37,527 bases of DNA, from the NCBI GenBank assembly GCA_040756085.1, contig JBFMAE010000405.1:1-37527 (forward strand). Direction: 5' to 3'. This document shows positions 19,761 to 31,229 of the stretch, piece after piece. Each line of letters starts with the position of its first letter. Position 1 is the first letter of the stretch. This DNA is from Thermodesulfobacteriota bacterium (GTDB lineage Bacteria > Desulfobacterota > BSN033 > UBA1163). The notes beneath the pieces are model-generated. The model was given only the letters and a program-made list of their open reading frames with translations. It did no database searches and was not told the DNA's origin. The translations under genes and the position numbers were made by a program.

Positions 19761-20072
19761 CCCACCCTCTCCTCCCCCGCAAGTGCCTGTGTCGCAATGG
19801 CGTGGAAGGGACAGGGAGCCAGCTTTGGAAGCTTTAGAATTGCGGTTACTTGAAGGCGAGGGCTACCACCCCTAATGCTTAAAAATAATGTTTGCCTGGG
19901 AACCAAGCTTATGATTTTATTTGCTAAAAGGTTCCGCTCTAAAGCTTCCTCAGCCGCCTCTCTGTCCCTTGGCCAACGTGTAGACCGCCGAATGATTGTT
20001 TTCGATCTTCAGCCCTCTCTCTATTGTGACACAGTCTCCAAGTGGGGTAGGAAAAAGGCGGAGGGAAATTGA
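19761..20072. mobile_element. foldback repeat element, copy A (MITE-like, degenerate left end)
   Basis: Shares blocks with 29167..29452: CCCTCTCC..CTGTGTCG.AAT, GCTTTAGAAT(T)GCGGT, AAAGGTT(T)CCGCTCTAAAGC, ATT.TGACACAGTCTC, AGGGAAAT(C)TGA. Its arms are inverted repeats of each other. Confidence 0.55.
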
Positions 20073-27154: not shown

Positions 27155-27183
27155 TTGACAACGGAAGGTTTGATGATTATTTA
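27155..27183 (+). promoter_or_regulatory. possible sigma-70 promoter for groESL (TTGACA-N17-TATTTA)
   Basis: TTGACA 27155..27160, TATTTA 27178..27183; no CIRCE element recognisable. Confidence 0.3.
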
Positions 27184-27220
27184 TTGGGCTGAAATTTTAA
27201 AAGAAGGGAGGTCTGTCTTT

Positions 27221-27508
27221 ATGAAGGTGAAGCCACTTCATGATCGGCTCATGGTCCAGAGACTGGAGGAAGAGGAGAAGACAAAAGGAGGAATCATCAT
27301 CCCTGATACGGCCAAGGAAAAACCGATAGAGGGAAAAGTGATCGCCGTCGGGGCTGGAAGGATCAAGAAGGATGGGACAAAGCTTCCCCTTGAGGTTAAA
27401 AAGGGCGATCGGGTCCTCTATGCAAAATATGCAGGAACCGAGATAAAGATTGATGGGGAAGAGTATCTCATGATGAAAGAGGAGGATATCCTCGCCATCA
27501 TTGAATGA
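27221..27508 (+). CDS. groES: co-chaperonin GroES
   Basis: [43 protein letters not shown]; GGGAGG RBS. Confidence 0.96.
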
Positions 27509-27519
27509 TGGATGAATGA

Positions 27520-29157
<1,638 letters not shown>

Positions 29158-29166
29158 TGAACTCCC

Positions 29167-29452
29167 TCAGATTTCCCTCTCCCCTTTTGGGGCTGTGTCG
29201 TAATCATGATGGAGGGTGGATTCCGCCGGAACAGGCAGTCATGTTCCTCAGCTTTAGAATGCGGTCGTTTAAAGTTATGGGTAATCGGCCTTCTCGGAAA
29301 TTGGATTCTTTTCATGGGCTTGGAGCCCCGAAGCTGAGCAATGAAAGGTTTCCGCTCTAAAGCCTCGTCACCCGACCACCTGTTCCGTGTTGTAACGGAA
29401 ATAGTTTCTTCTTAATTATGACACAGTCTCTTTTGGGGAGAGGGAAATCTGA
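29167..29452. mobile_element. foldback repeat element, copy B (MITE-like, intact terminal inverted repeats)
   Basis: Left end TCAGATTTCCCTCTCCCC....CTGTGTC and right end GACACAG....GGGGAGAGGGAAATCTGA (18 + 7 matching positions); nested internal stems CGGAACAGG/CCTGTTCCG and GCTTTAGA..GCGG/CCGCTCTAAAGC; no conserved ORF. Confidence 0.6.
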
Positions 29453-29504: not shown

Positions 29505-31229
29505 ATGGAGGATTCCCACCCCATTGTATTACCGGAAGATCCGAAGGAGGCCCATAAGGTCTTCAATACCCTTCCTGTGAAGAGTCAGCTCGAAACCGTC
29601 CTGCAAGCTCGCGGAAAAGAGCGGCTCCATTTTTTATTCCTTTCGGAACATCCAGAACAGCTGGTTCAGCTTCTTCCGGAGATGGAGGTTTTTTTAACCG
29701 TGAAGGAGATCGGGGAGAAGGACAGCCTTCACCTGATCTCGCTCACTACTCCGGAGCAGTTTCAATATCTTCTCGACCTCGATTTCTGGAAAAGGGACCA
29801 ACTGGATCCGGAGAAGGTCCTTCACTGGATGGAGATTCTGCTCGAATCGGGTGAAAAGAAGGTCATCCAATTTATTCATTCATCGGATCCTGAGTTCATC
29901 GCCCTCCTTCTTAAAAAATTTCTTCACGTCACAACCCTTGAGGGGGAACACGTGGAGGTGATGGATCGCCTCTCTCTTTTTACTCTGGATCAATTTTACT
30001 TCGTCGATTTTAGGGGCAAGAGGACCAGAGAGGTGTTTGAGCCTTTCTTGAGAATCCTCTATAGGATCGATGGCGAGGGATATCGAAGATTGATGGAATC
30101 CATCATGTGTGAAATCGAATCAGAACTCGAAGAGACAGGATATCGCTTGAGAAACGGGCGCCTCAATGACTACGGATTTCCGGATTTTGAAGAGGCTTTG
30201 GAGATCTACCGGTTTGTCAACCCCGATTCCCTGAGGAGAGAGGAAAGGCCTCCGCAAGCCATAGGTCCGAGAGAAGGAAAGATAGGAAGTTCCACCTTCT
30301 ACCTCACCTTCCAGAATGAAGGCCCTTTTCTATCCTACATCCTCTCCGGGACGGATGATCCCGACGAAGAGGATCGAGTGAAGCAAGAATTAGCCTCACT
30401 CTGCAATAAAGCAATCGTGGCAGAGGCGATAGATCTTTCCAATATTTCCGCCATGGAGAGGGTAGTAAAAAAGGTTTACCATACTCTGAACCTCGGCCTT
30501 CAATACCTGAGCAGGGAAGAGGAGACGAAGGCATTGGAGACCCTTCGATCCCTTTCCATTCAGAAGATATTTCAATGCGGGGTGAGTACGACGCTTCTTT
30601 TAAGAAGGAAGGCAGAGTCGATTTTGAAAGGCCCCTGGTTTTCAAACGATCAGGAGAATCTCGTTTTTCTGGATCCTCCTCATCTTGAAAGATTTGAAGG
30701 GGTTCTGAAGAAGAGGCCCAGTCTCTATCGAAATGGAAAATTTGAAGACTTTAAGAACCTTCAGGATTTTAAAGAGATAGAGAGTTTTTTAGAGTTAATA
30801 GAAGTCGTTGTCAGTACATTGGGACAGAAGTTCAATGTCTATCCTCTAAGGTTAAAGGACCTGAACCTGAGCGGTTGCCATCCAGAGAGATGGCAAGAGA
30901 TAACGCTCTCCACCATTTTTCTCACTTCTATTGCAAACCAGATCCTCAAGGGAAGGTTTCAATTCGAAGCCATTGAGAAGATTTGCTTGAAAGATCTTTT
31001 CCTCCGGGTCTTTGAAAGAGATGGGGAAGGGAAGGGGGTTGTAAGGATGGAGATCAAAAAAGGGTTAAGAGAGTGGCTCGAGTCCATCGAAGGGGATGAG
31101 AACAAACGGCAGCATCTCAAAGCCTTTAGTGATTTCTGCCTCGACCTATTCGAAGAGCAATACGGAAGCATTTCTCAGGGAGAGGAGGTCGACCCCCGAT
31201 ATGTCAAGGGCCTCCTCATCCGTTCCTGA
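29505..31229 (+). CDS. conserved hypothetical protein, 574 aa, helical, acidic (possibly the family catalogued as DUF6178; N-terminus reminiscent of MgtE-N repeats)
   Basis: Long uninterrupted ORF with normal composition and no competing frame; N-terminal ..LTTPEQFQYLLDLDFWKRDQLDPEKVLHWMEIL.. is the only segment I recognise; family name given from memory only. Confidence 0.6.
   Translation: MEDSHPIVLPEDPKEAHKVFNTLPVKSQLETVLQARGKERLHFLFLSEHPEQLVQLLPEMEVFLTVKEIGEKDSLHLISLTTPEQFQYLLDLDFWKRDQLDPEKVLHWMEILLESGEKKVIQFIHSSDPEFIALLLKKFLHVTTLEGEHVEVMDRLSLFTLDQFYFVDFRGKRTREVFEPFLRILYRIDGEGYRRLMESIMCEIESELEETGYRLRNGRLNDYGFPDFEEALEIYRFVNPDSLRREERPPQAIGPREGKIGSSTFYLTFQNEGPFLSYILSGTDDPDEEDRVKQELASLCNKAIVAEAIDLSNISAMERVVKKVYHTLNLGLQYLSREEETKALETLRSLSIQKIFQCGVSTTLLLRRKAESILKGPWFSNDQENLVFLDPPHLERFEGVLKKRPSLYRNGKFEDFKNLQDFKEIESFLELIEVVVSTLGQKFNVYPLRLKDLNLSGCHPERWQEITLSTIFLTSIANQILKGRFQFEAIEKICLKDLFLRVFERDGEGKGVVRMEIKKGLREWLESIEGDENKRQHLKAFSDFCLDLFEEQYGSISQGEEVDPRYVKGLLIRS

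Follow-up and report, generated by a model that had tools for sequence, protein, structure and literature searches.

The window analysed here, by which we mean the whole stretch of 37,527 nucleotides, carries the chaperonin genes groES and groEL and, downstream of them, a gene for a DUF6178 protein (Table 1). The interval between groEL and the DUF6178 gene, in which the earlier note had placed an inserted foldback element, does hold such an insertion, and all of the repeats and nested stems that the note listed are present in the sequence. The foldback starts with a hairpin arm 9 nt after the groEL stop codon, and its outer arms extend into a 43-nt inverted repeat that is 79% complementary. 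The inner stem CGGAACAGG/CCTGTTCCG falls inside an inverted repeat (29227-29258 with 29356-29387), and further inner pairings are formed by GCTTTAGA..GCGG with CCGC..TCTAAAGC and by GGGCT-tgg-AGCCC. Both strands fold far better than shuffled sequences (z -7.9 and -8.9). A direct repeat, CTTTTGGGG, is found at 29184-29192 and 29430-29438, and its T run is the target-site duplication; the 8 non-complementary nucleotides that had been bracketed in the earlier note hold this direct repeat and are not a bulge. From its position, co-transcription of the element with groESL is plausible.

Table 1. Features of the groEL-DUF6178 locus and of the second element copy, with positions in the window.
Feature	Position	Strand	Basis or remark
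groES	27155-27508		Upstream of groEL; Pfam Cpn10 6.6e-39
groEL (Cpn60)	27523..29157	+	Pfam Cpn60_TCP1 1.1e-79; stop codon 29155-29157
Host hairpin, left arm TCAGATTTCCCTCTCCCC	29167..29184		Target, outside the mobile element
Target-site duplication, left copy, TTT	29185..29188		Direct repeat D8; originates from the hairpin loop
MITE, 242 bp, non-autonomous, IS1182 family (very likely); family 1, subfamily A	29189..29430	+	Copies in own genome, relatives, IS termini
Left terminal inverted repeat GGGGCTGTGTCGTAAT	29189..29204	+	2 mismatches to consensus GAGACTGTGTCGYAAT
Conserved foldback module, 163 nt	29228..29388	+	Covariance model R1, 150.7 bits, E 1.4e-33; covariation
Right terminal inverted repeat GAGACTGTGTCATAAT (minus-strand reading)	29415..29430	-	In-register comparison of copies
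Target-site duplication, right copy, TTT and one extra T	29431..29434		Direct repeat
Host hairpin, right arm GGGGAGAGGGAAATCTGA	29435..29452		Inverted repeat of the left arm
DUF6178 gene, downstream	29505..31229	+	Pfam PF19676 3.8e-156; synteny with groEL kept in relatives
Second family-1 copy in the window, subfamily D, 256 bp, diverged	19783..20038	+	BLAST, covariance model

The order groEL-DUF6178 is kept in related genomes, in which the spacer between the two genes measures 62-85 nt, compared with 319 nt here. In two of these relatives (G001 and G005), an intact empty hairpin, ...CCCTCTCCCC-TGA/GCG-GGGGAGAGGGG..., stands directly 3' of the groEL stop codon. Because the orthologous site has the hairpin without the insert, the 18-nt outer arms belong to the host and not to the element; they are a REP-like, GC-rich host hairpin that is older than the insertion. 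The genome holds approximately 95 empty hairpins of the form CCCCTCACCC-NN-CCCTCTCCCC-(3-nt loop)-GGGGAGAGGG-NN-GGGTGAGGGG, for example at C11:13733, C126:2750, and C305:53. The element of about 286 bp with 18+7-bp termini that the earlier note described is, therefore, correct as a foldback and incorrect in its ends, as the mobile part measures 242 bp, the 18-nt arms are the host hairpin, and the true terminal 16-mers contain the CTGTGTC block.

Host hairpins of this kind are landing sites of IS1182-type elements, and other small GC-rich palindromes, of GCCTGCCTGCCGGTAGGCAGG-like and GCGCCGCCGTCCAAAGCC...GGCGCCGGAC-like types, are also nested between their stem halves (C309:5215-5528, C252:7400-7800, and C305:7640-7730). 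On contig C309, a palindrome of approximately 66 nt is inserted within a family-1 MITE, beside the CCGC-TCTAAAGC stem. The genome has, in addition, 15 Y1_Tnp (PF01797) genes with open frames of 170-335 aa, which could, as candidates only, encode REP-associated transposases.

A BLAST search of the assembly (3.8 Mb in 444 contigs, 93% complete) recovered copies of the element at 91% (C260) and 70% (C133), one that is cut short by the end of its contig (C382), and approximately a dozen 250-nt elements having a 35-nt core in common. Family 1, as we call this group, has at least 16 copies in its own genome, divided among four subfamilies (A-D) and including one, C364, that derives from an internal deletion and a solo-end remnant (C85:5560-5600) that reads CCCC-TAG-GAGACTGTGTCGCAAT-TAG-GGGG; relatives in other genera carry subfamily A elements and many more family-1 copies. 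Both element ends bear the 16-bp terminus GAGACTGTGTCGYAAT, and the same termini also bracket unrelated interiors of 99-180 nt. Across this and other genomes, an identical 3-nt direct repeat flanks the insertion at 49 of 89 unique sites, where 1.4 would be expected by chance, and an inverted 3-nt repeat is found at just one of the 89; registers of 2, 4, and 5 nt fail. At the groEL site itself the loop is a T run, so that a 3-bp and a 4-bp duplication look alike there. The second copy within the window sits between divergently oriented genes, has a degenerate left end (GTGCC, not GAGAC), and is flanked by the repeat CAA/CAA.

The only open reading frame of note, which encodes 68 aa (29154-29360), matched no family in a Pfam search and is broken by stop codons in most subfamily relatives. 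Long open frames run across the element, but dinucleotide shuffles have frames of about the same length (60 vs 70 codons), and stop codons are not depleted relative to them (23.6 vs 23.0 stop triplets). A coding reading was rejected on these grounds.

An autonomous partner for the element is found in related genera. In G006 and G012, pairs of the same ends lie approximately 1.72 kb apart (L040 and L041) and enclose genes for proteins of 482 and 494 aa, which match the NCBIfam model NF033551, 'IS1182 family transposase', at 360 and 390 bits (cut-off 270) and also carry the Pfam domains DUF772 and DDE_Tnp_1_6. These full-length ISs occupy the loops of the same hairpin type, as in CCCCTCTCCCC-CAG-[IS]-CAA-GGGGAGAGGG. 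Close homologues of the transposase (at least 77% identity) are confined to 5 of 19 genera, and a stop codon is present in one of them; a genome search together with a local tblastn search found no homologue of the cognate transposase in the present assembly (93% complete, 444 contigs). Since the assembly is incomplete and several of its contigs end inside these repeats, the gene may be unassembled; in this genome it has been either lost or left out of the assembly. With IS homologues in so few genera and none in this assembly, the MITEs outnumber and outlast the IS.

Because an IS with the same termini exists elsewhere and the assembly itself is without the transposase, the element is classed as a non-autonomous MITE. 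It is small and non-coding, it has terminal inverted repeats, a target duplication, and empty sites, its copies are dispersed, and its autonomous partner shares its termini. We consider it very likely that the 242 bp are a non-autonomous IS1182-family MITE that entered the loop of a hairpin already standing downstream of groEL. Because of two mismatches at its left end (GGGGC, not GAGAC), the window copy may be immobile now. The earlier note had likewise favored a non-autonomous MITE without a credible ORF, and both views hold; of the checks that it had proposed, a BLASTN count of copies and target-site duplications succeeded, and a search for an autonomous partner succeeded in related genera and yielded no transposase in the genome's own assembly.

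In other genomes, the same ends occupy loops of hairpins that bear no relation to this type, as in CCCGGC-GAAA-[element]-GAAA-GCCGGG. As these hairpins are quite different, the target appears to be recognised by its shape, the hairpin tip, and not by its sequence. To the observed copies, ends, duplications, empty sites, and partner IS with identical ends in identical targets, we would add an inferred course of events, which includes the chemistry, mobilisation in trans, and structural recognition of the hairpin tip. The full-length IS would supply an IS1182-family DDE transposase in trans, and this enzyme would recognise the 16-bp ends GAGACTGTGTCGYAAT, cut at the hairpin tip with a 3-bp stagger, and paste the element into the loop. 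With a staggered cut in the loop, the loop nucleotides would come to flank the element as a direct repeat.

All 19 genera that were sampled from the family have the terminus GAGACTGTGTCGYAAT, with at most one mismatch, and each genome carries 2-133 copies of it (reversed control 0-1); two sister families have almost none. The labels of 52 loci with paired ends name Smithella, Smithellaceae, 'Syntrophaceae', and Thermodesulfobacteriota MAGs, and a few loci are labelled as other phyla; those in bins of other phyla could reflect either transfer or mis-binning.

Several side observations bear on the wider movement of these ends. The same 12-nt ends, at MITE spacing, around unrelated interiors, and in other hairpin targets, are seen in other-phylum bins assigned to Sedimentisphaerales (L050), Thermodesulfovibrionales (L057), Elusimicrobia (L064 and L067), Scalinduaceae (L070), SAR324 (L078), and Omnitrophica (L089), and could mean either that this IS1182 lineage has spread horizontally or that the contigs were mis-binned. 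IS1182 ends also surround a different interior at C73:6441-6620, C280:15745-15869, C35:9792-9915, C81:14119-14243, L057, and L054. That interior is made of GTCATTCTGAG(C/G)GAAGCGAAGAATC / GTCATTGCGAG... units, each unit being itself an inverted-repeat element, and such units are found in MAGs of several phyla. The 494-aa transposases of two different genera (G012:C22:463014-464495 and G005:C35:4288-5769) came out as 100% identical in the homologue search, which suggests a very recent inter-genus transfer or cross-contamination of bins.

The interior of the element is a conserved foldback module with an outer covarying stem, an invariant GCTTTAGAAT-GCGG ... CCGC-TCTAAAGC stem, and a variable centre. 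This architecture is common to subfamilies A-D, which are approximately 70% identical, and to relatives in other genera. The outer stem differs among subfamilies, being CGGAACAGG, GGGAGAGGC, or GGGACAGAGAG, each with its matching complement. In an alignment of 23 module sequences with 22 pairs, 89% of the cells are paired, compared with 76% in shuffles, and double-sided changes are seen in 16 of the 22 pairs, compared with 9.3 +/- 1.4 in shuffles (0/500) and 2-9 in slid registers; the relatedness of repeat copies makes the shuffle control overstate the significance, and the slid-register control, which is fairer, still supports the structure. Covariation within an inverted repeat is weaker evidence for RNA function than it would be in an ordinary RNA gene, because template switching in a DNA palindrome or selection of the DNA hairpin during transposition can also restore complementarity. 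A further alignment, A3, in which two rows had wrong coordinates, contributed to none of the counts.

A covariance model (R1), a kind of check that the earlier note had suggested, was built on the 23-sequence alignment, and in this genome it recovered approximately 16 copies with known ends and approximately 47 further copies. Of 33 genomes sampled from the family (Smithellaceae), 32 contain the module according to R1 at E <= 1e-9, with as many as 52 copies in one genome; the same scan gave 0 of 13 for sister-family genomes, and a strict core pattern found it in 0 of approximately 389 genomes of other families in the phylum. The interior matches the parent IS over just 16-30 nt at the ends, and an R1 scan of 12 IS loci found no module in full-length ISs; on this basis, derivation of the interior from the parent IS was rejected.

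In most of the further copies, the ends are GRAGSTGTGAAAAAATT...AATTTTTTCACASCTYC, with 3-bp direct repeats (TCA, TAA, and TGA) on either side. A view of them as 'naked' copies without transposon ends is largely wrong, as most have the ends of a second IS1182 lineage. In G013, a distant IS1182-like element, the protein of which is approximately 28% identical, is bounded by GAAGCTGTGAAAAAATT. The core reads TTTACAA-GCGG ... CCGC-TGTAAA in the other lineage and TTTAGAAT-GCGG ... CCGC-TCTAAA in the lineage of the window copy, a compensated change. The same interior is found between different ends, so that at least two IS1182 lineages have MITEs that contain it. A few copies lacking recognisable ends are located on C200 (between pgk and tpiA), C436, C404, and C251. 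Across subfamilies, the module is better conserved than the termini; this reverses the ordinary course of MITE decay, and a simple MITE picture leaves it unexplained.

At three places, two modules of different subfamilies are convergent (head to head) and lie 66-190 nt apart: C92:1591-1754(+)/1945-2104(-), C30:733-895(+)/961-1125(-), and C172:4826-5001(+)/5067-5226(-).

When the orientation of the window copy is taken as '+', family-1 copies between two same-direction genes run with those genes in 25 cases and against them in 4, and copies of the other lineage run with the genes in 22 cases and against them in 6 (p = 0.004). In this genome only, where the sites are independent, 33 copies are co-oriented with neighboring genes and 6 are not. 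Nearly all copies are positioned 20-200 nt past a stop codon and ahead of the next start codon. The '+' RNA is the less stable of the two strands, in that the reverse complement folds better in 37/47 and 30/47 copies and RNAalifold gives -43.9 kcal/mol for the reverse complement versus -26.9 kcal/mol for '+'. In the 47-sequence alignment, columns 73/177 show a seemingly fixed A.C pair that probably reflects an RNAalifold register artefact beside the AU bulge, and for this reason our claim of strand asymmetry is taken from the alignment-free energy comparison. One reading of the orientation bias together with the weaker '+' fold is that insertions that put the stronger hairpin into operon transcripts are harmful and have been removed.

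Alternatively, the bias may stem from the mechanism of insertion and not from selection, for instance if the transposase acts on hairpins extruded from one strand at a replication fork or transcription bubble, so that insertion would set the orientation of the element against the direction of the genes. The target does look structural, as the elements occupy loops of unrelated hairpins, hairpins extrude from single strands, and two IS1182 lineages show the same bias. However, the target hairpins have a symmetric sequence, the left and right termini are so nearly the same that they offer no evident orientation determinant, and IS1272/TnSha1 of staphylococci inserts both ways at one target (PMC4923244). 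We regard a mechanistic origin of the bias as a possibility to be kept in mind, with the odds against it.

It is also tempting to ask whether the module functions as a structured RNA, be it a cis-acting element of mRNA stability or processing or a multi-copy small RNA, for which the MITE is just the vehicle and which at groEL would act on the groESL transcript. The covarying stems are in keeping with this, as are a core that is more conserved than the transposon ends and common to MITEs with different ends, the lack of the module in any full-length IS, its family-wide and family-restricted distribution, its co-orientation with flanking genes, and its nearly constant position in short spacers after stop codons. 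Against it, a scan for sigma-70 promoters and intrinsic terminators gave nothing beyond chance (one weak terminator-like hairpin lies at 29383-29400), and neither the window copy nor subfamilies B-D nor copies with other ends matched a family of Rfam 15 at E <= 1. No constant neighbor gene accompanies the copies, the neighbors being pgk/tpiA, HGD-type activase genes, alanine racemase, mtrH/URO-D, and groEL/DUF6178. Moreover, the strand that is usually co-transcribed has the weaker fold, individual copies carry uncompensated mutations, and the complementarity of a DNA palindrome is restorable by template switching (quasipalindrome correction) or by selection of a DNA hairpin in transposition. 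A functional RNA, to which the alternative of the earlier note (a highly structured small-RNA gene) also belongs, is, in our judgment, unlikely. A riboswitch or gene-specific leader was rejected because the neighboring genes are unrelated.

A broader proposal, which we put forward tentatively and consider rather improbable, is that the module represents a Smithellaceae-specific new class of structured nucleic-acid element that is selected for its fold, either as a cis-acting RNA that would influence the stability, processing, or attenuation of operon transcripts or as a single-stranded DNA hairpin that IS1182-type transposases need, and that has spread between the ends of several IS1182 lineages. 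If this were true, the cargo would be the conserved thing and the transposon ends interchangeable shells. Our best guess is that the module is kept because a long foldback would help the elements to move or to be tolerated in transcribed intergenic spacers, in which case it would be a passenger in the groESL transcript and not a dedicated RNA gene.

Two remaining alternatives are so improbable that they can be dealt with briefly. That the whole 286 bp is the mobile unit, with the 18-nt outer repeats as its terminal inverted repeats, draws on the perfect inverted repeat of TCAGATTTCCCTCTCCCC, which occurs exactly twice in the window, at either side of the element (29167-29184 on the + strand and 29435-29452 on the - strand; 0.13 expected), but is refuted by the hairpins that stand without an insert, both after groEL in G001 and G005 and at many other places in the genome; against it also speak the variable 3 nt between arm and 16-mer, which are direct and not inverted repeats, and the alignment of copies in register, in which the outer C-rich/G-rich arms vary from copy to copy and the inner 16-mers are nearly invariant at both ends. 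Likewise, although several contigs end inside element copies (C350, C305, and C382), a collapsed or chimeric repeat produced by assembly is hardly credible, given the unique flanks of the window copy on both sides, its conserved synteny, the precise insertion signature, and homologous full-length copies in many independent assemblies.

The element is, in kind, known biology, and a non-autonomous IS1182-family MITE has several counterparts among described systems. IS1397 and ISKpn1, of the IS3 family, are autonomous ISs that insert in the loops of REP/BIME palindromic units with a short duplication. The present elements resemble them in that they enter the loop of extragenic palindromes that are repetitive in the host and make a short duplication, whereas IS1397 and ISKpn1 differ in transposase family and ends, are autonomous, and are without a conserved structured cargo. 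ERIC/IRU, Correia (NEMIS), and RUP elements are small imperfect palindromes that occur in many copies in transcribed intergenic spacers and have a conserved central inverted repeat; the effects of ERIC and Correia elements on flanking mRNA depend on orientation. The Smithellaceae elements are unrelated to these in sequence, and the mobilising enzymes of Correia and RUP elements are other ones. Position and the orientation bias speak for a possible co-transcription of the Smithellaceae elements with flanking genes, as in ERIC and Correia elements. The host hairpin family of approximately 95 copies looks like the REP sequences of REP/REPIN and RAYT systems, a likeness that concerns the target hairpin and not the inserted element. 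A literature search found no paper describing these Smithellaceae repeats.

The closest experimental precedent comes from the same transposase family. IS1272 and TnSha1, which are IS1182-family elements of staphylococci, integrate, without sequence specificity, into hairpins, several of which are confirmed terminators (PMC4923244), and palindromic targets have been ascribed to some IS1182 members (Siguier et al., 2015, as cited in PMC4923244). The transposase family is thus shared, as is a hairpin-forming inverted-repeat target that often lies downstream of genes and has no primary-sequence specificity (PMC4923244). IS1272 and TnSha1, however, cut bluntly within the stem, delete part of the target, and produce no duplication (PMC4923244), whereas here the loop is hit, the stem stays intact, a precise 3-bp duplication is made, and the element is a gene-less MITE. 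The present elements thus follow another mechanism than IS1272, the only experimental precedent, in which no duplication arises and part of the stem is lost. The present elements are set apart from described cases by this precise loop targeting with a 3-bp duplication and, second, by a family-specific, covarying, orientation-biased interior that is common to transposon lineages.

These findings explain one kind of long foldback in genomes of the Smithella family, the boundaries of which are a host hairpin, a 3-bp duplication, and 16-bp ends. They also add a second and cleaner example of how IS1182-family elements target hairpins, in which a precise hit in the loop with a 3-bp duplication stands against the stem cut and deletion of IS1272. 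The less ordinary part is the conserved, covarying, orientation-biased interior, which is carried between different transposon ends. The hosts of the module-bearing operons are syntrophic degraders of alkanes and fatty acids and, if the module acts as an RNA, dozens of operons in each of their genomes, groESL included, would carry the same structured insert.
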